Source: Candidatus Falkowbacteria bacterium GW2011_GWF2_43_32
Lineage (GTDB): Bacteria; Patescibacteriota; Patescibacteriia; Patescibacteriales; UBA12465
Length of the DNA: 64,000 nt
Direction: 5' to 3'
NCBI GenBank assembly: GCA_000999715.1
Contig: LCGL01000004.1
Span: 44,289-108,288 of the forward strand
The first letter of the stretch is position 1. Each line of letters starts with the position of its first letter. Under the pieces are notes generated by a model, which saw only the letters and a program-made list of their open reading frames with translations, was not told the origin of the DNA and made no database searches. The translations under genes were made by a program, and so were the position numbers. This document shows, piece after piece, positions 8,999 to 48,389 of this stretch.

Positions 8999-10393
<1,395 letters not shown>

Positions 10394-10401
10394 TAAAAAT
10401 T

Positions 10402-10848
10402 TTGTTTATGTCGCAAAAGATTATCACATTTGAAATCGTCACGCCGGAAAGAGTTGTTTTCCGAGAGGAAATCAGACAGATAACCGTGCCGACGACCAGC
10501 GGCGAAGTCACTATTTTGCCGGAGCATATTCCTTTGGTTTCCATCTTGAAGCCGGGCGTGTTGGAAATCAAAAAGTCCGACGATACCTGGGAAATTATTT
10601 CAGTATCCGGCGGATTTTTGGAGGTGCTGCGGGACAAAATTGTTATTTTAGCGGATACGGCGGAAAGAGCGGTGGAATTGGATGAACAGAGAATTGAGGA
10701 GGCTAGAGCCAGAGCCGAGGAAGCCAAGAAGAATGCGATTAATGTTGATCAAATGGAATTTGCCCGTATTGCCGCTCAATTGGAGAAAGAATTGGCGCGG
10801 ACGCGCGCTTTGAATCGTTGGCGGAAGATTAAAGGTTTTTCCAAGTAA
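10402..10848 (+). CDS. atpC: F0F1 ATP synthase subunit epsilon
   Basis: N-terminal beta-sandwich (IVTPERVVF..) plus C-terminal helical hairpin. Last gene of the operon. Confidence 0.85.
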   Translation: MFMSQKIITFEIVTPERVVFREEIRQITVPTTSGEVTILPEHIPLVSILKPGVLEIKKSDDTWEIISVSGGFLEVLRDKIVILADTAERAVELDEQRIEEARARAEEAKKNAINVDQMEFARIAAQLEKELARTRALNRWRKIKGFSK

Positions 10849-10906: not shown

Positions 10907-11183
10907 GTATTTGGAATCGGATTTTGATTTACGGGATTTACCAAGGATTTTTGATATTTTTAAGGCGGAAACTCGTCATTATTCATACTTTGTTGTTTAT
11001 TGGTCCTGTTGCATAAGCGAATAAAAGGAGATAAAATAAGATTATCCGAGTATTGACGCTTGATTCGAGAATTACGCGATATATTCGTATAATAGTCAAT
11101 AATTTGTATATATTGCGTATTTATGACGTATAAAAATGAGTTAGCTGAAATTTTGTCTGCCTAATCAATAATCCAATATTAAT

Positions 11184-11630
11184 ATGCCTGAAAAAGAACG
11201 ATTTAAACCGTACGCCGCCGCCTATCTCGTCTTAATAAAAGATGGGCAAGTTTTGCTCATGAAAAGAGCCAACACTGGCTATCAGGATGGAAATTACGGG
11301 TTAGTATCTGGCCATTTTGATGGCGGAGAAACAGCAAAACAATGTATAATTCGTGAATCAAGGGAGGAGGCTGGAATTACTGTTTTTCCGGAAGATCTTG
11401 AAGTTGTTCATGTTGTGCATCGTTTTAGACCGGCTAGGGAATATTTTGATATTTATCTTCGTGCAGAAAAATGGTCTGGTGAAATAAAAAACATGGAACA
11501 AGATAAATGTGATGAGTTTGGGTGGTTTAAAATTGACGATCTTCCGGAAAATGCGATTCCCGAATTAAAACTTGCCCTTGAAAATATTAGAAACAACGTG
11601 CATTATGGAGAGCTTGGTTGGGCGGCTTAG
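11184..11630 (+). CDS. Nudix hydrolase (island cassette 1)
   Basis: Nudix box GHFDGGETAKQCIIRESREEAGI (Gx5Ex7REUxEExGU). Confidence 0.85.
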   Translation: MPEKERFKPYAAAYLVLIKDGQVLLMKRANTGYQDGNYGLVSGHFDGGETAKQCIIRESREEAGITVFPEDLEVVHVVHRFRPAREYFDIYLRAEKWSGEIKNMEQDKCDEFGWFKIDDLPENAIPELKLALENIRNNVHYGELGWAA

Positions 11631-11664
11631 TGATATTAAAAATGTCGGCAGACAAAGCATCAGA

Positions 11665-11760
11665 TAACACGGTATATACAAAATTTTCTTTCGCTTCGCT
11701 TCAAAAAACTTCGTATGATACCGATACGTTGTACGCCATACACTTCGGCGCGCGGGTTAA
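11665..11760. repeat. Island intergenic repeat: imperfect palindrome with arms CAGATAACACGGTATATAC ... GTATGATACCGATACGTTGTAC around a CTTTCGCTTCGCTTC-AAAAAACTTC box
   Basis: The reverse complement of the right arm matches the left arm at most positions. The central box recurs at 13540-13560 and 16860-16875. Confidence 0.55.
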
Positions 11761-11774
11761 ATAAAGTTCACGAT

Positions 11775-12236
11775 ATGAACATTGAGGATTTGAAAAATAC
11801 AGTCAAAGATATAGTCGCCAAGGCTGATATTTTGAAAAGTAAAATTGTAAAAGAGCCAGTTCCAGTAAATTACGCATGTATTTTCTGCCAAAGTAAGGAA
11901 GAATATACGTCGTTTCTTGAAACAACAAAGCAAATCGGAACCGTAGTCCAAGAAACAAAAGCTGGCCCTGTATTTCAAATTGCTTCTTTGCCCACGATTG
12001 CAGGGAATTTGCAGCTACTTAAGATACGCAAGCCTGATCCAACACGGCCTGAACGTGGAGACGCTGATTTTACTCTCTTAAACTATGAAGAATTTAAAAA
12101 AGAGCATCTTTCACAACCAGGGTTTAGTCTCATTCAAAAGGAGCAACTCGAAATGATAGAGTATATGGAGCCAGATAGTTCTATTAGAGTGTATTTTTCA
12201 AATCCTCCATTAGATAAACAGTTGGGGATTATTTAA
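11775..12236 (+). CDS. Hypothetical protein (island cassette 2)
   Basis: ORF with no recognisable motif. Start placed at MNIEDL. The track ORF begins at 11715 but that extension runs through the intergenic repeat. Confidence 0.5.
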   Translation: MNIEDLKNTVKDIVAKADILKSKIVKEPVPVNYACIFCQSKEEYTSFLETTKQIGTVVQETKAGPVFQIASLPTIAGNLQLLKIRKPDPTRPERGDADFTLLNYEEFKKEHLSQPGFSLIQKEQLEMIEYMEPDSSIRVYFSNPPLDKQLGII

Positions 12237-12243
12237 GAGGCGC

Positions 12244-12290
12244 CTCGTGTACAGCGCACAACACCGGATATCCGATTCGTGAGCTAAGTA
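12244..12290. repeat. Island intergenic repeat copy (CACAACACCGGATATCCG box)
   Basis: Shares the AACAC-N3-ATATCCG core with copies at 13349, 16435 and 16915. Confidence 0.5.
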
Positions 12291-12302
12291 AAATTATTTT
12301 TT

Positions 12303-12761
12303 ATGCCCGACCACCAAAATAAACTGATCGCTGAAACTTCTTCCGAATTGTCTGCCGTGCTCAAGTTGTTACGCAGACATAGAGCTGATATTAAAAATAG
12401 CTATAAAGAAAAAAGGGGTGAGCGTCAGATATTAAGCCGTGAAGAGAGACGAGTAATACTAAATAAAACAGCTCGGCGCTGTCATATCTGTGGCGGTAAA
12501 ATTGAAGGAAACAAATTTGACGCTGATCATGTTATGGCGCATAGCAGCGGCGGCAAACATAACATTGATAATTATTTACCAGCTCATTCATTGTGCAATA
12601 ACTATCGATGGGATTATCTTGCAGAAGAGTTTCAGCTTATATTAAAAATAGGGGTTTGGTGCAGAACATTGATTGAGCATAATAAAACAACATTAGACCA
12701 AAAGATTGCCAAGAGTTTCATCGAATATGAAAAGAGTAGGTTAAAAAGAAGAAAAAAATAA
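12303..12761 (+). CDS. HNH endonuclease domain protein (island cassette 3)
   Basis: CHICGGK...DADHVMAHSSGG...NIDNY..HSLCNNYR: CxxC, DH, N and H of the HNH/His-Me finger. Confidence 0.8.
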   Translation: MPDHQNKLIAETSSELSAVLKLLRRHRADIKNSYKEKRGERQILSREERRVILNKTARRCHICGGKIEGNKFDADHVMAHSSGGKHNIDNYLPAHSLCNNYRWDYLAEEFQLILKIGVWCRTLIEHNKTTLDQKIAKSFIEYEKSRLKRRKK

Positions 12762-12779
12762 TTTTACTTATCTCGCTCA

Positions 12780-12895
12780 TTCAAATTGCTTGTCCGCTTA
12801 GGCGTTGGGTAGCGCTCCATTCCACTACGCGCTACAATTATACCGCCACGCGAACTGCGCAACTTCGAATATCCGCAAACGTTAGATGAAATAAT
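12780..12895. repeat. Island intergenic repeat copy (GTAGCGC..GCGCTAC inner palindrome; GAATATCCGCAAACGTTAGAT right arm)
   Basis: Contains the TTATCTCGCT and CACTACGCGCTAC boxes shared with 16870-16900. The right arm ends in GTTAGAT, a perfect GTTRRRY match. Confidence 0.5.
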
Positions 12896-12907
12896 AATCC
12901 ACCTAAT

Positions 12908-13327
12908 ATGAATAAAGAAACCAGTTTTAAAAAAATCTTGTATTCTAAATTGAATGCGAGACAACAAGAAAATTATAATTACCAAAAAGCGTCGGCAATT
13001 CTAGCTGACTATGGATTCAACACGCTTCGACTTTCGGATGACTGGCAGGGGGCTGATTTCATCGCAATACATATTAATGGTAAAGATTTTTTAAAAGTAC
13101 AACTTAAGGGTCGCCTCACATTTGAAAAAAAGTATATTGGTAGAGATATTTGGATTTGCTTTTCTTATCAAGACAACTGGTTTCTTTATCCGCACGATAT
13201 GCTACTTCAAATATTTGGAGATAAAATGAATTTCATCAATACGAAATCATGGACTGAAAAGGGTGGGTATAGCTGGAATCATTTAAATAAAAATCAAATT
13301 TTAGTTATCTCCAAATATAAGATTTAA
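12908..13327 (+). CDS. Hypothetical protein, possible PD-(D/E)xK nuclease fold (island cassette 4)
   Basis: GADFIAIHINGKDFLKVQLKG resembles a D...(E/Q)xK catalytic core. The assignment is weak. Confidence 0.45.
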   Translation: MNKETSFKKILYSKLNARQQENYNYQKASAILADYGFNTLRLSDDWQGADFIAIHINGKDFLKVQLKGRLTFEKKYIGRDIWICFSYQDNWFLYPHDMLLQIFGDKMNFINTKSWTEKGGYSWNHLNKNQILVISKYKI

Positions 13328-13344
13328 AGCCAGTGGATTATTAC

Positions 13345-13448
13345 ATCAGCTAACACGACATATCCGCAAGGGCGAAAGCCACATTTTGCCACTCTATTAA
13401 AAAAAATAAGGATGTGGCGAAACGTCGGATATGCCGTAACGTTATTTG
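13345..13448. repeat. Island intergenic repeat: nested imperfect palindrome (attC-like architecture)
   Basis: Outer arms CTAACACGACATATCCG and CGGATATGCCGTAACGTTAT are reverse complements with a few mismatches. Inner arms AGCCACAT and ATGTGGCG flank an A-rich centre. Confidence 0.6.
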
Positions 13449-13525
13449 AAATATTCCTTTTTTTTGGCTATCGTTCAATTGTTGTAAAAAATTTTAAAAT
13501 TTCTTTTTTATTAATTAAAGAGGGG

Positions 13526-13580
13526 TATATAGTGTTTTCTCCGCTACGCTACAAAAACTTCTTTTATCCCTGATGTTCTG
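13526..13580. repeat. Island intergenic repeat copy in reverse orientation (GGGTATATAGTGTT + CTCCGCTACGCTAC-AAAAACTTC + TTTTATCCCTGATGT)
   Basis: Reverse complement of the ACATCAGG...AACAC..TATATAC box, with the same central box as 11692-11725. Confidence 0.5.
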
Positions 13581-13585
13581 CAAAA

Positions 13586-14065
13586 TTGAAACTTTTACAA
13601 CTTTTCTTTTTTAATATGAAACAGACTTATTCTATCGGAGCATTTGCGATTATCCTTGATGACCAAGATCGTGTTTTGCTTTGTCATAGAAATGATTACG
13701 ATCTTTGGAATCTCCCTGGCGGAGGAGTGGAATTTAATGAGGCGCCGTGGGAATGCGTCGTTCGTGAAGTTAAGGAGGAAATCGGCCTTGATGTTGAAGT
13801 TGAGCGTCTTGCTGGCGTGTACAGTAAGCGCAACCAAGATGAGTTAGTTTTTTCTTTTGTTTGTAGGGTTGTTGGTGGAAAAATGACGCTCACAAATGAA
13901 GCCGACCAAATTGAGTATTTCCCAATCGAGGAGATTCCAAAGAATACGTCGCCTAAGCAAAGTGAGAGAATAAAGGATGTTCTTGCCGATAAAGGCAAAA
14001 CGCTAGCTATGAGAGTTCAAGAAGGTCCGTCATCAATAAGTTTGATAAAGGAGGGAAAGTTGTAA
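13586..14065 (+). CDS. Nudix hydrolase (island cassette 5)
   Basis: Nudix box GGGVEFNEAPWECVVREVKEEIGL. Alternative start at 13616. Confidence 0.8.
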   Translation: MKLLQLFFFNMKQTYSIGAFAIILDDQDRVLLCHRNDYDLWNLPGGGVEFNEAPWECVVREVKEEIGLDVEVERLAGVYSKRNQDELVFSFVCRVVGGKMTLTNEADQIEYFPIEEIPKNTSPKQSERIKDVLADKGKTLAMRVQEGPSSISLIKEGKL

Positions 14066-14130
14066 AAAATTTCAGTATCGCATACTCGGATATGTTATGT
14101 GAAATAAAGTTTTATTTTTAACTATAGTCT

Positions 14131-14544
14131 ATGGCTTATTTCAATAAAATCGGTTTGCTGTATCTTAATGACGATCAGTCAAAGTTTTTAGTGTGTGAAA
14201 AAGATAATTTTACTTCTGATTTCATTATGCCCGGCGGGCAAGTGGATGATGGCGAGAATAATGAAGAATGCCTCGTACGTGAAATTAAAGAAGAGCTCGA
14301 TGTAGATATGGATAAGACAAGCCTCATATTTATCAAGGAGTATGTAGATGTGGCGGCCGGTGACCCGACAAAAGACGTTTCTATAAAGTTGTACGAAGGT
14401 AAAATTATTGGCGAGCCTAAACCGTCTGCTGAAATAATCAAGTTTCACTGGGTTGGTAAGGACGACTTGTTTCATCCGCGACTTTCCCCGATTGTCAAGA
14501 ATAGAATTTTGCCTGATCTTATCGCAAAAAAAATACTAAAATAA
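14131..14544 (+). CDS. Nudix hydrolase (island cassette 6)
   Basis: Nudix box PGGQVDDGENNEECLVREIKEELDV. Confidence 0.8.
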   Translation: MAYFNKIGLLYLNDDQSKFLVCEKDNFTSDFIMPGGQVDDGENNEECLVREIKEELDVDMDKTSLIFIKEYVDVAAGDPTKDVSIKLYEGKIIGEPKPSAEIIKFHWVGKDDLFHPRLSPIVKNRILPDLIAKKILK

Positions 14545-14552
14545 AATTTTAC

Positions 14553-14578
14553 ATCGCAGAACACGGTATGGCTAATTA
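14553..14578. repeat. Island intergenic repeat, short copy (ACATCGCAGAACACGGTATGGCTAAT)
   Basis: Matches the ACATCAG-N-TAACACGGYATAT box. Lies 9 nt upstream of the next start codon. Confidence 0.5.
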
Positions 14579-14586
14579 CGACCTTT

Positions 14587-15207
14587 ATGCAAATACCAGC
14601 CAATATTTCGCTAAAACAAGAAGGGCAATATTGTATTCATTGTTTTTCGCAAAAAGTCGAAAAAACTGATCGGGATGGCTTAACATATTATCATTGTCAT
14701 TCGTGCGGCCAGATTGCAGAAAGAAGCTTGGTTATCGATAATAGTATTGTTTGGTGGATAGATAAAAAAACCAATGAGTATTGGCATGAGAGTGTGGGTA
14801 TTTTTGTTTTTAATTTTGAAAATAAAGCTCTTTTTTTCGAAAGGACCATTTATCCTTTCGCCTTTACTATTCCGGCAGGGCATCTTGACGTCGGAGAAAT
14901 TGCAGACGTCGCCGTAAAGCGAGAGTTGAAAGAAGAAACAAAAATTGAATCTGATAATGTTAAACTTTTTTCGACAGAAGATGTGAGCGGAGACAAATGT
15001 CGTCGCGGAGCCGATCATCATAAATGGCATCTTTATGTAGCTCAAATTGAAAATATCGGTAACATCAAAATAAACGACGAAGGAATAAAGCCCGTTTGGC
15101 TCACTTTTGATGAGGCGTTGGGAAAAAAATTGGTGTATCCGGTCCGATATTTTATTGAAAAATACGGAGAAAAACTGTTGAAATCGGCGCAAATAGTAGA
15201 AATATAA
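14587..15207 (+). CDS. Nudix hydrolase with N-terminal zinc ribbon (island cassette 7)
   Basis: CIHC...CHSCG zinc ribbon followed by Nudix box PAGHLDVGEIADVAVKRELKEETKI. This resembles the NudC-type domain order. Confidence 0.8.
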   Translation: MQIPANISLKQEGQYCIHCFSQKVEKTDRDGLTYYHCHSCGQIAERSLVIDNSIVWWIDKKTNEYWHESVGIFVFNFENKALFFERTIYPFAFTIPAGHLDVGEIADVAVKRELKEETKIESDNVKLFSTEDVSGDKCRRGADHHKWHLYVAQIENIGNIKINDEGIKPVWLTFDEALGKKLVYPVRYFIEKYGEKLLKSAQIVEI

Positions 15208-15288
15208 GAGGAAAATTGTTTGTACCAAAAAATTAAAAAAGGAGTTTTAGGCTCGAGCATTGACGCTCTTATATTTTCTGACCTTAAT

Positions 15289-15343
15289 TTGTTCCGATTT
15301 CTTTAATATGGTATACTGTAAATAATCAGCTAAACCATATTAA
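15289..15343 (+). promoter_or_regulatory. Candidate promoter (TTGTTC-17-TGgTATACT, extended -10) overlapped by a perfect 10-bp inverted repeat TTAATATGGT/ACCATATTAA, upstream of the fic gene
   Basis: -35 at 15289-15294. TG-extended -10 at 15309-15317. Inverted-repeat arms at 15303-15312 and 15334-15343 with a 21-nt spacer. Confidence 0.45.
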
Positions 15344-15352
15344 ATATTTTCT

Positions 15353-16318
15353 ATGACATATCTACCATCTATCATAAAAAATCGTCTGGAAGAAAAATTG
15401 TCTAAACTTAACAAACTTCGTCCCCTGCCCAAATCAGCGGTACAAAAACTTCGTGAAAAATTCCAGATAGAGATGACCTTCAATTCAAACGCCATAGAGG
15501 GCAACTCTTTAACTTTAAAAGAGACCTTTTTGGTTATTAATGAAGGCATAACTGTAAAGGGGAAACCCTTGAAAGACCACCTGGAAGCCAAAGATCATCA
15601 CGCCGCTTTGGAATATTTATACGAGTTAATAGATAAAGACAAAAGACACACTATTTCGGAAATGCTTATACGAAATTTGCATAAAATTATTATACAGGAA
15701 ACCGATAAGGATTGGGCCGGCCGATACAGAAATGCCAATGTAACTATAGGGGGAGCAAAACACACGCCGCCAGATGCGTTGCAAGCGCCACAAAAGATGC
15801 GAGATTTAATCAGTTGGTTGAATTTACAAAAAGGCAAGACTAATATCGTTGAATTGGCCGCCTTATTACATCACAAATTAGTGCATATCCATCCCTTTTT
15901 TGACGGCAACGGCAGAACGGCACGACTCACAATGAATTTACTGCTTATGCAGGCGGGCTATCCGTTGGTTATTATTATGAAAAATGACCGCAAGAAATAT
16001 TATGATGTATTGGATAAAGCGGATAGCGGTAAACTCGAACCTCTAATAAAATTTATTGCTCAATCTATAGAGCGCTCACTTGATATTTATCTAAAAACTT
16101 TGACTCCCTCAACCACCAAGCAAGAAAAATTTGTATCGCTTGCTGAAATATCCAAGACTATTAATTGTTCTGCCAAATACTTAAATCTGCTCGCCAGACA
16201 AGGAAAACTGGAAGCATACAAAGAAGGCAGGGATTGGTTGACATCGAAAGAAGCTGTTGAACGATATTTTAAAAACCGAACAAGACAAAGAAAAAGTTCA
16301 AAAAAGAAAGTTATATAG
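15353..16318 (+). CDS. Fic/Doc-family protein (AMP-transferase-type motif) with C-terminal excisionase/MerR-like HTH (island cassette 8)
   Basis: Canonical Fic motif HIHPFFDGNGRTARL. C-terminal LAEISKTINCSAKYLNLLARQGKLEAYKEGRDWLTSKEAVERYF matches the HTH_17/excisionase-type DNA-binding pattern. Confidence 0.85.
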   Translation: MTYLPSIIKNRLEEKLSKLNKLRPLPKSAVQKLREKFQIEMTFNSNAIEGNSLTLKETFLVINEGITVKGKPLKDHLEAKDHHAALEYLYELIDKDKRHTISEMLIRNLHKIIIQETDKDWAGRYRNANVTIGGAKHTPPDALQAPQKMRDLISWLNLQKGKTNIVELAALLHHKLVHIHPFFDGNGRTARLTMNLLLMQAGYPLVIIMKNDRKKYYDVLDKADSGKLEPLIKFIAQSIERSLDIYLKTLTPSTTKQEKFVSLAEISKTINCSAKYLNLLARQGKLEAYKEGRDWLTSKEAVERYFKNRTRQRKSSKKKVI

Positions 16319-16429
16319 GAGTTTTGGTCCTGGGGCATTTTTCCCCAGCTCATCTGCTCCTACGCCCAGACAAAAATAAAATTTGTTCATTAAGAAAAGT
16401 ATTTGACTATCGTCGGAAAAAAGAAAAGC

Positions 16430-16512
16430 ATACATCATATAACACGGCATATCCGGTTACGGCGTTTATACAAAAGCCGTAATCAGGCATGCCGAAACGT
16501 TATGCGCCGCCA
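16430..16512. repeat. Island intergenic repeat: nested imperfect palindrome (attC-like architecture)
   Basis: ATATAACACGGCATATCCGG | TTACGGCG-TTTATACAAAA-GCCGTAA | TCAGGCATGCCGAAACGTTATGC. Outer and inner arms are each reverse-complementary pairs. The right end GTTATGC lies 60 nt before the next ATG. Confidence 0.6.
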
Positions 16513-16568
16513 AAAGGATGCACTTGGCTTGCGAATATTTATAAACAAGAATAATAAACAACAACATT

Positions 16569-16835
16569 ATGGAAAATAATCATTTCAAAGATGCGGTTAA
16601 ATCACACAAACTGCTTGCGCAAGAAAGAACCATTCTTGCCAATGAGCGTAATACTCTCGCGTATATAAGAACGGGGTTTTCTTCATTTGTTCTCGGTATT
16701 GCAGTCATTAAATTATTTGAGAACGACGGTTTTTTGCTATATGCTGGATGGATAGCTGTCGTGATGGGAATATTATTTATTATTCTGGGGCTAGTTTATT
16801 ATCCAATACGGAAAAAGAAGATTAAGTCATATTAG
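16569..16835 (+). CDS. DUF202/YidH-family small membrane protein (island cassette 9)
   Basis: TILANERNTLAYIRTG motif typical of DUF202, followed by two TM helices. Confidence 0.7.
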   Translation: MENNHFKDAVKSHKLLAQERTILANERNTLAYIRTGFSSFVLGIAVIKLFENDGFLLYAGWIAVVMGILFIILGLVYYPIRKKKIKSY

Positions 16836-16845
16836 ATTGTGTCCT

Positions 16846-16945
16846 CCTGAAACTCACTCCGCTTCGCTCCGACTACGCCACGCTTTTATCTCGCTGCGTT
16901 ACGCTTCAGTCGAGTCGTATAACAAGGCATATCCCGGACAAGAAC
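16846..16945. repeat. Island intergenic repeat copy (CACTCCGCTTCGCTCCGACTACGCCACGC + TTTTATCTCGCTGCG + GTATAACAAGGCATATCCCGG)
   Basis: Combines all three recurring boxes of the family. Confidence 0.55.
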
Positions 16946-17008
16946 TACCAAACAAGGGGTCGAGTAAGAATTGAAACATTCACTAGCAGTTAATTAATTA
17001 AAATTATT

Positions 17009-17332
17009 ATGAAATTAGGAATAATTATCAGTCAAATAAATCCGGAAACAAATTGGAACGCTTTGCGTTTAGCGAATTTTGCTCTCAAACAAGGCGACGA
17101 AGTTAAAATTTTTCTCATTGGCGAAGGCGTAGAGTATGAAACGGGCAGTTCGGAAAAATTTAACCTCCAAGAACAAATAGCGGAATTTTTAAAATCTGAA
17201 AATGCTAAAATTTTGGCGTGCGGCACTTGTTTAAAATCGAGAAATCAAGAAGCGACCGATAGCTGCCCGCTGAGCACCATGAAAGATCTATATGCGCTCG
17301 TACAAGAAAGCGATAAAATTTTAACTTTTTAA
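17009..17332 (+). CDS. DsrE/DsrF/TusD-like protein
   Basis: 107 aa, fold and length typical of the DsrE/DsrF-like family (conserved Cys in ACGTCLKS). Confidence 0.55.
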   Translation: MKLGIIISQINPETNWNALRLANFALKQGDEVKIFLIGEGVEYETGSSEKFNLQEQIAEFLKSENAKILACGTCLKSRNQEATDSCPLSTMKDLYALVQESDKILTF

Positions 17333-17344
17333 TGAAATAATTTT

Positions 17345-17563
17345 ATGATGTATTATAATTTTGCGCCTTTTGGCTGGATTTTCATGATTTTTTTCTGGGT
17401 TTTGGCGATTGCCGGAATCATTGTTTTGATAAAATGGCTAGTCGGCCAAAATAAGACTGAAAGCGGAAAAAATAATATCGCCTTAGATATTCTCAAAGAG
17501 AGATATGCAAAAGGCGATATTAATAAAAAAGAGTTTGGAGAAAAAAAGAGAGATTTGGAATAA
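17345..17563 (+). CDS. SHOCT-domain small membrane protein
   Basis: One TM helix then [25 protein letters not shown], the SHOCT (short C-terminal) domain pattern. Confidence 0.6.
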
Positions 17564-19383: not shown

Positions 19384-19674
19384 ATGAAGTTAAAACCATT
19401 ATCTAACAATGTTATTGTCAAGCCCTTGAAAAATGAAACTAGCACCAAATCCGGCATCGTTTTGCCGGAGACGATCGATAAAGAAAAGCCGGAGACGGGA
19501 GAAGTTGTCGCCGTCGGATCGGGACGTATTTTGGATAACGGGCAGACAGCGCCTTTGACGGTCAAAGTCGGCGACCGAGTGATGTTTAAAAAATATTCGC
19601 CGGATGAGATTAAAATTGACGAGGAAGATTATCTGGTTTTAAGTGAAAGCGATATTATCGCCATTATTGAATAA
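19384..19674 (+). CDS. groES: Co-chaperonin GroES
   Basis: 96 aa, KPLxxNVIVKP..[15 protein letters not shown] pattern of Hsp10. Confidence 0.93.
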
Positions 19675-21360
<1,686 letters not shown>

Positions 21361-48177: not shown

Positions 48178-48362
48178 TTCCGCCTCACTCGCGGACCAGT
48201 CCGCTCGTTCGTTGTCGCGGTCAGCGTCCGAAGCTCCCCCGGAGCTTCGTCCGACGCTCGCTACGGTGCCACTCTGCTGAGCGGCCCCTAAGCTCGCTTC
48301 TGACCTGTTTGCTTCCCCTAGTTGCGAATTAATAATAAAAAATATCCAGTATTCACTGGATA
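48178..48362 (+). other. 185-bp GC-rich structured element bracketed by the tRNA-Glu 3'-end direct repeats; candidate integration scar or small ncRNA
   Basis: Markedly GC-rich (about 60%+ by eye) in AT-rich context. Contains long imperfect hairpin AGCGTCCGAAGCTCC-ccc-GGAGCTTCGtccGACGCT. 5' CTAGGGGAA can pair with 3' TTCCCCTAG. Preceded and followed by + strand terminators. Confidence 0.4.
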
Positions 48363-48370
48363 TTTTTTAT
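48342..48370 (+). terminator. Intrinsic terminator
   Basis: ATATCCAGT-attc-ACTGGATAT perfect 9-bp stem followed by TTTTTTAT. Confidence 0.55.
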
Positions 48371-48389
48371 TAGTAGTCCCTAGGGGAAT
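48363..48389. repeat. Direct repeat copy B (tRNA-Glu 3' 16 nt + 11-nt trailer)
   Basis: See copy A at 48151-48177. Confidence 0.8.

Follow-up and report, generated by a model that had tools for sequence, protein, structure and literature searches.

We analysed a 64,000-nt stretch (the window) of contig LCGL01000004.1 from a Candidatus Falkowbacteria bacterium, which belongs to the Candidate Phyla Radiation (CPR; Patescibacteria). A segment of this window at ~11.1–17 kb is likely an integron-like array of independently acquired single-gene cassettes, which includes a self-contained and self-controlled Fic enzyme fused to a DNA-binding domain. The cargo would comprise four divergent NUDIX hydrolases, a protein of 153 amino acids (aa), a small HNH endonuclease, a 139-aa protein that we refer to as p139, a DUF202 membrane protein, and the Fic protein (Table 1). 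Each cassette would begin with a GTTA..TGAAAT core and end with an attC-like imperfect palindrome. Exchange of cassettes at AAC|GTTA would be the work of a tyrosine recombinase whose gene lies elsewhere.

The genes of the segment all lie on the + strand, between atpD/atpC (9011–10848) and groES/groEL (19384–21360), and the window proteins that were compared are identical to those of contig DNKM01000003.1 (GCA_003489845.1; Candidatus Falkowbacteria, CPR/Patescibacteria). Loci from other genomes are denoted by L-numbers (L004, L083 and so on); the sets comprised 96 loci in all, 80 loci with relatives of the window Fic (61–89% identity), and 86 loci that were scanned with a covariance model, R1. 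A sequence-only reading of 12303–16318 had called this region an island. In support of this term, the GC content is lower over ~11.1–17 kb than elsewhere in the window (0.37–0.39 versus ~0.45); against it, no tRNA, integrase, or long flanking direct repeats, the classical island hallmarks, were found at the low-GC stretch. What really distinguishes this stretch is its array of attC-like sites.

attC-like sites and cassette boundaries

Repeat analysis of 10.7–19.5 kb revealed a motif, ACATCAG.TAACACGGCATATCC, that recurs after the NUDIX1, p139, NUDIX3, Fic, and DUF202 genes, is confined to 11.6–17 kb of the window, and is on the + strand throughout. The NUDIX1, HNH, p139, and NUDIX3 genes are each flanked by 22–27-nt inverted repeats. 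A complete element is an imperfect palindrome in which ..CATCA..TAAC and A are followed by an 11-nt stem, a 20–146-nt loop, the complementary stem, (A)AAC, and finally GTTA..TGAAAT. Complete elements fold as single-stranded DNA (ssDNA) better than 200/200 shuffles on the gene strand (z ~−3). When the window and the loci were scanned with a strict pattern, 26 elements were recovered, compared to 0–4 in shuffled sequences, and all but one of these (25/26) were on the gene strand. Alignment of 22 elements showed that TAAC and GTTA are invariant and that compensatory changes occur in 7 of the 11 stem pairs; the stems are 98% paired and have no obvious bulged bases. R1 recovered the sites at 16428–16504 and 11665–11740 in the window, plus the ends of other sites, and gave 51 matches in the scanned loci, 48 of them on the + strand. 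Fic is flanked by R1 sites on both sides in L029, L020, L043, and L017. The clearest array seen is on a Patescibacteria contig (L083, 1–10420), where ten sites occur in 10 kb, mostly with one behind each small open reading frame (ORF). The ORFs of this contig include two NUDIX genes, a p139 homologue, and others, with a HigB/HTH_3 pair just upstream of the first site. Outside the low-GC stretch, a weak R1 match on the − strand (48317–48384; 15.5 bits, E 0.48) beside tRNA-Glu is probably an unrelated hairpin.

The strongest evidence for the array came from the boundaries of the cassettes. The p139 cassette is found in three unrelated contexts, and in each the homology extends from GTTAG.TGAAAT to the site; over 12861–13452 its identity is 91% with L096 and 82% with L083. 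Similarly, the NUDIX1 cassette is 87% identical in nucleotide sequence to a Buchananbacteria contig (L014) over exactly 11140–11677. The start and end of the same cassette are complementary to each other, as is expected if a circular unit is inserted by crossover at AAC|GTTA. At the HNH gene, the half-site at 12256–12280 may pair with 12866–12876. We also observed a leader of ~130 nt, GTTA..TGAAATAT.C.TTTT ... GGGGTATATAGTGTTTTCTCCGCTACGCTAC, which follows the core and precedes several different cassettes, including some Fic cassettes; a promoter, a recombinase-binding region, and a small RNA are all candidates for its function.

These features resemble those of integrons and of clusters of attC sites that lack an integrase (CALINs). 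As in those, short single-ORF cassettes lie on the same strand, and behind each of them comes an imperfect palindrome that has conserved AAC...GTT ends, inner stems that covary, a variable loop, and a GTTA crossover core (GTTAGAT fits GTTRRRY). The sites follow the attC order R''(..AAC)-L''-variable loop-L'-R'(GTT..), in which the structure is kept and the sequence varies. The cassettes are discrete units bounded at the cores, as seen for p139 and NUDIX1, with complementary starts and ends. In canonical attC sites the R-L spacers are ~5 nt each, whereas those of the sites described here are 1 nt and 3–4 nt. They also differ in that the stems are almost fully paired and have no evident extrahelical bases, the complementary arms reach ~22 nt into the cassette, the ~130-nt leader is conserved after many cores, and the host belongs to the CPR.

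Upstream of the arrays, on the other strand, related loci encode tyrosine recombinases of 270–290 aa, a divergent arrangement shared with integrons. A recombinase is present at 6 of 20 Fic loci with sites, versus 1 of 59 without (p = 8e-4). The best NCBIfam model for these proteins is the XerA/integron integrase model NF040815 (cutoff 220), to which one of the three scanned scored 249 bits and the other two 213–215 bits. Against the PDB, their top match is IntI4, an integron integrase of Vibrio (E 2.5e-40). Unlike integron integrases, they lack the IntI-specific domain, which contacts the extrahelical bases of attC; sites without extrahelical bases are consistent with recombinases of this kind. 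In L094 and L019, a GTTATAT(G/A)AAATATGCTTTTCTTTTT core lies ~100 bp from the start of the divergent recombinase gene, in an attI-like position. These observations point to a broader proposal, which we consider possible but would not call probable: that CPR bacteria have an integron-like gene-capture system of their own, in which a short IntI/XerA-like recombinase would act on attC-like hairpins without extrahelical bases, single-gene cassettes would pass between distant CPR lineages, and the self-repressing, FICD-like Fic-HTH protein would be among the most widespread passengers. In the literature searched we found no paper on integrons or attC arrays in CPR bacteria, which is absence of evidence only.

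Several points weigh against the array as we interpret it. Part of the covariation stems from the search design, in which a palindrome was a requirement. R1 was built on loop-trimmed elements, and long-loop sites were lost when the model was run with filters off. The window contains three complete sites, the rest being half-sites, and given this predominance of half-sites the array may be old, decaying, or fixed. Approximately 60 of the 80 Fic loci have no detectable site, and the stretch that links the upstream site to the Fic promoter shows no conservation between loci. No recombinase of the IntI/XerA-like type is encoded in the 64-kb window. Those of related loci score below the cutoff of the integron-integrase model TIGR02249 (200–213 bits versus 265), and their alignment to IntI4 is split, ~43 residues of IntI4 (183–243) having no counterpart at the place of the IntI-specific domain. 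The divergence of third codon positions and the host-tracking GC content of Fic, described below, indicate that transfers of Fic were not recent. Finally, the AlphaFold model of Fic, built with 42 close homologues, was unusable (mean predicted local distance difference test score, pLDDT, 61.5).

A class II Fic enzyme and its candidate operator

The sequence-only reading had described the Fic protein as having a complete catalytic motif, and this was borne out: the protein matches Pfam Fic (E 8.3e-25) with an intact HPFFDGNGRTAR at residues 180–191, and HPFFDGNGR (residues 180–188) is invariant or nearly so in 72 homologues. The same reading saw no obvious inhibitory alpha-helix partner encoded nearby and counted a free toxin that lacks an inhibitor among the possibilities. 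Both views are refuted by a search of the whole protein for (S/T)xxxE(G/N), which gave a single match, S45-N-A-I-E49-G. This motif is present in 72/72 homologues and aligns with the inhibitory helix of human FICD, TVAIE234GN. As the inhibitory motif is intramolecular, the free-toxin reading of Fic fails, by the very finding that the sequence-only reading had said would overturn it. By sequence, the window protein is a class II Fic with a predicted inhibitory motif in the same chain, which would be restrained by its own Glu49 helix and act as an FICD-type AMP-transferase/de-AMPylase.

Human FICD is also the best PDB match of the protein (E 2.9e-47, query residues 17–251). In FICD, a relay of E242 and K256 connects the dimer interface to Glu234, and the principal contact of the dimer is L258 (PMC6826200). 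Counted along the ungapped alignment, these residues correspond to E57, K71, and L73 of the window Fic; E49, E57, and K71 are invariant in the 72 homologues, of which 71 also have Leu at the position of L73. The Fic motif and inhibitory helix are thus shared with FICD/HYPE (PDB 6I7G/4U04) and with bacterial class II enzymes such as BtFic (3CUC), and the relay and interface residues are shared with FICD. The protein is nevertheless not an FICD/HYPE orthologue: it has no N-terminal membrane anchor, transmembrane part or TPR part of the kind that docks BiP, the alignment covers the Fic core and starts after 16 N-terminal residues, the secondary interface residue G299 of FICD is not conserved, and the C-terminus carries an HTH_17 domain instead.

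A class I toxin-antitoxin arrangement of the VbhT/VbhA or FicT/FicA type was not supported, as no conserved antitoxin gene lies beside Fic and the NCBIfam VbhT model scored 20.5 bits versus a cutoff of 800. Since a small antitoxin, AS1, was reported to lie downstream of a Sofic in E. coli (PMC12249575), the region downstream of Fic is of particular relevance; no conserved small ORF occurs within 500 bp downstream across the Fic loci, and an AS1-like antitoxin there was ruled out. SoFic orthology was likewise rejected, with 34.8 bits to the NCBIfam SoFic equivalog NF046030 (cutoff 550) and a match to the SoFic structure in the PDB (E 2.5e-5) that is limited to the Fic core.

The Fic protein is exceptionally constrained. 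More than 120 protein clusters are 84–98% identical to it over the full length, with representatives in Uhrbacteria, Magasanikbacteria, Buchananbacteria, Doudnabacteria, Falkowbacteria, Kerfeldbacteria, Kuenenbacteria, Peregrinibacteria, and Roizmanbacteria; close relatives are also found in Desulfobacterota and Omnitrophota. In 30/30 locus pairs Fic was more conserved than the other shared orthologue, for example 85% identity versus 71% for RpoB, 85% versus 65% for RpoC, and 88% versus 61% for RF1. At the same time, third codon positions are ~55% identical, and the GC content of Fic tracks that of the host (r 0.84). Diverged third positions with host-like GC point to purifying selection that is strong, whether or not older transfers also took place, and not to a recent sweep. 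That Fic is kept more constant than RNA polymerase may imply an important, conserved target. Two contigs of assembly JAZDOC01 (L025 and L039) each carry a Fic-HTH copy, and these share 85% and 84% identity with that of the window.

The proposal that the C-terminal segment resembles HTH_17 also held. HTH_17 (PF12728) scored below its cutoff of 27 with the whole protein (25.1 bits) and above it with the isolated C-terminal 71 aa (28.3 bits), and it matched 24 of 27 diverse members of the Fic family. A profile of this domain searched against the PDB gave only a weak match, to the winged helix of BlaI (E 0.08).

The suggestion that this domain binds DNA or serves autoregulation fits a strictly conserved palindrome over the Fic promoter. 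The 41-bp palindrome directly precedes the Fic start codon, is unique in the window, and was absent from shuffled sequences. Of the 96 loci, 69 have a single copy of the palindrome in exact form; wherever Fic is present, this copy lies just upstream of it. Both half-sites are retained with at most one mismatch in 77/79 loci, and 74/78 keep a total length of exactly 41 bp. The half-sites are unchanged even at 61% Fic identity, including in Desulfobacterota and Omnitrophota, while the spacer between them varies. The HTH recognition region (KYLNLL..GKLEAHKEGRNW) is as invariant as the half-sites. Most loci have a TTGACC −35 box 16–17 nt upstream of TGG-TATACT, which overlaps the left half-site, and the right half-site lies just after the expected transcription start. 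Since the −35 box of the window, TTGTTC, is weak, the promoter assignment there relies on the other loci; a simple promoter scanner made no Fic promoter call in the window (−35 matches 3/6). Taken together, the palindrome is probably an operator for the Fic HTH domain.

In the mechanism we favour, an HTH_17 dimer would most likely sit on the palindrome over the −10 box and transcription start of its own gene, contacting two half-sites 31 bp apart centre to centre (three helical turns), and would thereby repress that gene. Dimerisation or DNA binding would then probably set the balance between AMPylation and de-AMPylation of a highly conserved target, by analogy with FICD, CbFic2, SoFic, and CccR. 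There are precedents: CccR is a repressor of the promoter from which it is expressed (PMC9755527), SoFic likewise binds the promoter of its own gene (bioRxiv 10.64898/2026.07.09.737422), and in CbFic2 DNA binding, through DNA-induced dimerisation, switches between AMPylation and de-AMPylation (PMC10628234). As in these three proteins, a class II Fic domain is followed by a DNA-binding domain, and the conserved operator suggests the same logic. The window protein differs from them in that its DNA-binding domain is an excisionase/MerR-type HTH_17 of ~60 aa rather than a SoFic-type or DeoR-type winged helix, and in lacking DUF4172 and the N-terminal dimerisation helix of SoFic, to which its similarity is weak. 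The Fic cassette is self-contained and under exceptional constraint, and it probably represses itself.

Three further observations concern this element. L069 and L071 each have a mirror-image change in both half-sites; in L069 (Gracilibacteria; 9949–9987) the half-sites read TTAACATGGGA / TCCCATGTTAA, and the HTH recognition region also differs (LLAATNKLEAHKENRNW versus LLARQGKLEAHKEGRNW), a single case that may reflect co-variation of protein and operator. In L096 (7650–7688), an orphan Fic promoter/operator palindrome has no Fic gene, and a 300-aa methyltransferase-like ORF comes ~120 bp further on. Either a Fic cassette was lost here and left the palindrome behind, or another gene has taken over the operator. 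Directly past the stop codon of Fic, at 16330–16400, a structured segment, CTTGGC..GGGGCATTCACCCC..GCCAAGAC with an A-rich run, precedes the attC-like site and is common to 9 of 76 loci, including L011, L015, L027, L042, L043, and L048. It has no T-tract and is therefore not a classical terminator.

Cargo genes and their independence

Although the sequence-only reading listed the nucleases and Fic, it overlooked three NUDIX genes (NUDIX 2–4) within the stretch it covered; NUDIX 1 lies just upstream (Table 1). The four NUDIX proteins retain REx2EE, the catalytic core of the Nudix box, and are only 21–37% identical pairwise, and are therefore not recent duplicates. For the 153-aa protein, the start at 11775 is the likelier one, because the start of a mechanically called 173-aa ORF (11715) falls within the attC-like site at 11665–11740, which overlaps the 5' part of that ORF. 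A 27-nt inverted repeat, I1 (11781–11807 / 12184–12210, 89% complementary), lies inside both ends of the 153-aa ORF. The DUF202 gene is possibly the last recognisable cassette.

Table 1. Features of the segment and its surroundings, with the positions of the ~130-nt leader in related loci
Feature	Position	Strand	Basis or remarks
First cassette start: core GTTAGCTGAAAT and cassette-specific arm	11140–11161	+	Arm complementary to 11647–11668; inverted repeat I15
NUDIX hydrolase 1, 148 aa, intact Nudix box	11184–11630	+	Pfam NUDIX, E 1.6e-17
attC-like site after NUDIX1, TAAC-ACGGTATATAC ... GTATGATACCGAT-AC-GTTG	11665–11740	+	R1 17.7 bits, E 0.13; motif family D1–D3
153-aa protein, no family match	11775–12236	+	Start as in the deposited gene call
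R''-L''-like half-site, CACAAC-ACCGGATATCCG	12256–12280	+	Read from sequence
HNH unit with 22-nt inverted repeats I2	12281–12774	+	I2 at 12281–12302 / 12753–12774, 95% complementary
Small stand-alone HNH endonuclease, 152 aa	12303–12761	+	Pfam HNH (PF01844)
L'-AAAC-R' site end, then p139 cassette start GTTAGATGAAAT	12866–12892	+	Three-genome homology begins at GTTAG
p139, 139 aa, PD-(D/E)xK-like fold	12908–13327	+	AlphaFold model and Foldseek
Complete attC-like site, CATCAGCTAAC-ACGACATATCCG ... CGGATATGCCGT-AAC-GTTA	13344–13444	+	ssDNA fold z −3.0 to −3.5
~130-nt leader	window 13420–13550; L014 4454–4590; L018 4782–4870; L004 254–374; L096 97–184; L008 7071–7133
NUDIX hydrolase 2	13616–14065	+	Pfam NUDIX, E 2e-22
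NUDIX hydrolase 3	14131–14544	+	Pfam NUDIX; flanked by inverted repeat I6 (14093–14118 / 14538–14563)
Truncated site, R''-L'' half only, ACATCGCAGAAC-ACGGTATGGC	14552–14575	+
NUDIX hydrolase 4, N-terminal zinc ribbon, 206 aa	14587–15207	+	Pfam NUDIX, E 9e-17
Putative Fic promoter	15289–15317	+	−35 TTGTTC, 17-nt spacer, TGG-TATACT extended −10; cross-locus alignment
41-bp palindrome, TTAATATGGTA-N19-AACCATATTAA	15303–15343	+	Candidate operator of the Fic HTH
Class II (FICD-like) Fic-HTH protein, 321 aa	15353–16318	+	Pfam, PDB, motif scan
Inhibitory motif within Fic gene	15485–15502	+
Fic motif within Fic gene	15890–15925	+
HTH_17 within Fic gene	16136–16279	+
Complete attC-like site after Fic	16428–16504	+	R1 25.4 bits, E 0.002; ssDNA fold z −3.1
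DUF202 membrane protein	16569–16835	+	Pfam DUF202, E 1.7e-13
Degenerate R''-L'' half-site, TCGTATAAC-AAGGCATATCC	16915–16940	+
DsrE-like gene	17009–17332	+
SHOCT-like gene	17345–17563	+

The HNH assignment made from the sequence was upheld, as the protein scores above the Pfam HNH cutoff (30.0 bits versus 21.4, E 5.9e-7) and the residues expected of a beta-beta-alpha-metal core can be read in its sequence: a CxxC (C60/C63), D75-H76, N88/N91, and H95. The family comprises 743 homologues of ~150 aa, the nearest non-self match being 66% identical, and homologues adjoin a phage terminase or an HsdR/NERD cluster. In its length and its CxxC...H...N...H core, and in having homologues beside the phage terminase large subunit, the protein resembles the small HNH endonucleases of phages and mobile elements (annotated McrA-like). 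It differs from them in standing alone, with no terminase or methyltransferase, with its own 22-nt repeats, and between two half-sites. The HNH unit sits between an R''-L''-like and an L'-R' half-site (12256–12892) as if inserted into an attC-like loop. We speculate that this is how it arrived; when the half-sites around the unit were spliced, they folded no better than shuffles (z 0.42).

For p139, the claim of a PD-(D/E)xK nuclease was sustained at the level of the predicted fold, which is the alpha-beta-beta-beta-alpha-beta type of restriction endonucleases, and not at that of sequence families. Neither Pfam, NCBIfam, PADLOC, nor the PDB sequences gave a match, no hidden Markov model of the PD-(D/E)xK clan matched, and a profile of the p139 family recovered chance matches only from the PDB sequences. 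The alignment-based AlphaFold model is confident (pLDDT 93.7), and its best Foldseek matches in the PDB (E 3e-4 to 1e-3, probability 1.0, template modelling (TM) score 0.45–0.53) are all PD-(D/E)xK proteins. These are the homing endonuclease I-Ssp6803I and the resolvases Hjc (archaeal) and RecU, which together with the N-terminal domain of the restriction enzyme Eco15I make up the top 27 matches; EcoRV and the SPARDA nuclease domain rank lower. The model shares with Hjc, RecU, and I-Ssp6803I an alpha-beta-beta-beta core, with an acidic residue in helix 1, an Asp in strand 2, and x-K in strand 3. It differs from them in its low identity (13–18%, TM ~0.5), in the lack of a sequence-level family match, and in its C-terminal elaboration. 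The family-invariant residues are E21, D50, and Q65-L-K67, a putative variant signature in which Gln replaces the second acidic residue (Q65-x-K67). The family of ~1,480 clusters occurs in CPR bacteria, Methanoperedenaceae, Pandoraea, and others, and its members adjoin NUDIX genes, a UDG gene, or a restriction-modification (R-M)/OLD-type cluster.

Because no recognisable partner gene was seen in the island, the sequence-only reading had entertained a new multi-gene system. None of the 80 Fic loci contains HNH or p139, and no other window gene occurs at a conserved position. Clustering of the ORFs that lie within 6 kb of Fic and encode 70 aa or more revealed nothing but Fic itself in common across the loci. 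Even a Fic with 93% identity and a p139 with 96% identity each lie in wholly different neighbourhoods, and the loci of p139 and HNH homologues lack the other window genes, which ruled out an HNH-p139 pairing. A functional link between NUDIX and Fic was also rejected, as an ORF with a Nudix box occurs within 6 kb of Fic in 6 of 80 loci. HNH, p139, NUDIX, and Fic never co-occur elsewhere and are therefore not one system. The genes of the segment are best read as independent cassettes, and HNH and p139 are possibly orphan nucleases carried as mobile cargo. The initial finding on this region thus proved largely ordinary and partly mistaken, in that its domains are correct, its Fic is self-inhibited, and its joint system has no evidence behind it.

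Competing explanations and significance

If the segment were instead a defence or addiction island, as the sequence-only reading had it, Fic would be a SoFic-type abortive-infection toxin and HNH and the PD-(D/E)xK protein defence nucleases, all acting as joint anti-phage cargo. This is unlikely in our view, even though PADLOC assigns Fic to its SoFic (E 5.2e-37) and PDC-S04 (E 9e-37) models and the NUDIX genes to PDC-S07. The last of these matches reflects generic NUDIX similarity, and the SoFic assignment is at odds with the NCBIfam score given above and with the absence of a conserved AS1-like gene downstream. The company kept by some homologues is suggestive of defence: p139 has a relative beside the R-M/OLD-type cluster, HNH has one beside HsdR, NERD, and Zeta toxin genes, and integron cassettes are rich in defence and toxin-antitoxin genes (PMC9668308). 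SoFIC is, moreover, the second most common DefenseFinder family in groundwater genomes (PMC12259885). However, the genes of the segment do not co-occur, no relative of Fic was found in viral contigs, and Fic exceeds its neighbours in conservation in every locus pair, unlike fast-evolving defence genes.

That conservation, with its diverged synonymous sites and host-adapted GC, is what one would expect if Fic-HTH were a vertically inherited, near-essential CPR housekeeping regulator, for example of translation or chaperones, and if the palindromes were elements similar to repetitive extragenic palindromes or terminators with no role in mobility. A conserved autoregulatory promoter, the many Fic loci that have no detectable site, and the want of a recombinase in the window fit this explanation too. 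We nonetheless judge it improbable. The context of Fic is different in every genome, even at 93% identity, some genomes hold two copies on separate contigs (L025/L039), close relatives occur in Desulfobacterota and Omnitrophota, and L096 has an operator with no Fic. In addition, the homology breakpoints of p139 and NUDIX1 coincide with GTTA cores, and the sites show an orientation bias of 25:1. A narrower objection is that the 41-nt element could be an RNA hairpin in the 5' untranslated region of Fic, which would control translation or stability, and no protein-binding operator. Perfect 10-bp arms, a variable loop, and the symmetric changes in L069 and L071 form a pattern that fits an RNA stem and a dimer-bound palindrome alike. 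The left arm, however, overlaps the spacer and TGn-TATACT −10 box of a TTGACC-N16/17-TATACT promoter; it thus lies upstream of the expected start and would be untranscribed, which argues for a DNA operator. There is also no evident G-T wobble asymmetry, the HTH recognition region is as invariant as the half-sites, and a Rfam scan gave no match in the island at gathering score and none in 15150–17050 at E ≤ 1. We therefore regard an RNA hairpin as very unlikely.

Given the PADLOC match and the frequency of SoFIC in groundwater genomes, automatic tools will probably label the window Fic "SoFic", while the evidence argues for a distinct autoinhibited, probably autoregulated FICD-like enzyme, which bears on defensome counts in groundwater and CPR genomes. 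Over the catalytic core, the window Fic shares ~45% identity with human FICD, and it combines the same regulatory relay with a fused DNA-binding domain and a 41-bp candidate operator. It may thus offer a compact model for how oligomerisation or DNA binding switches an enzyme between AMPylation and de-AMPylation. If the attC-like sites do recombine, the array would represent a cassette-exchange platform in the CPR that is related to integrons and mechanistically simpler, and such a platform would help explain the exchange of accessory genes among reduced genomes.

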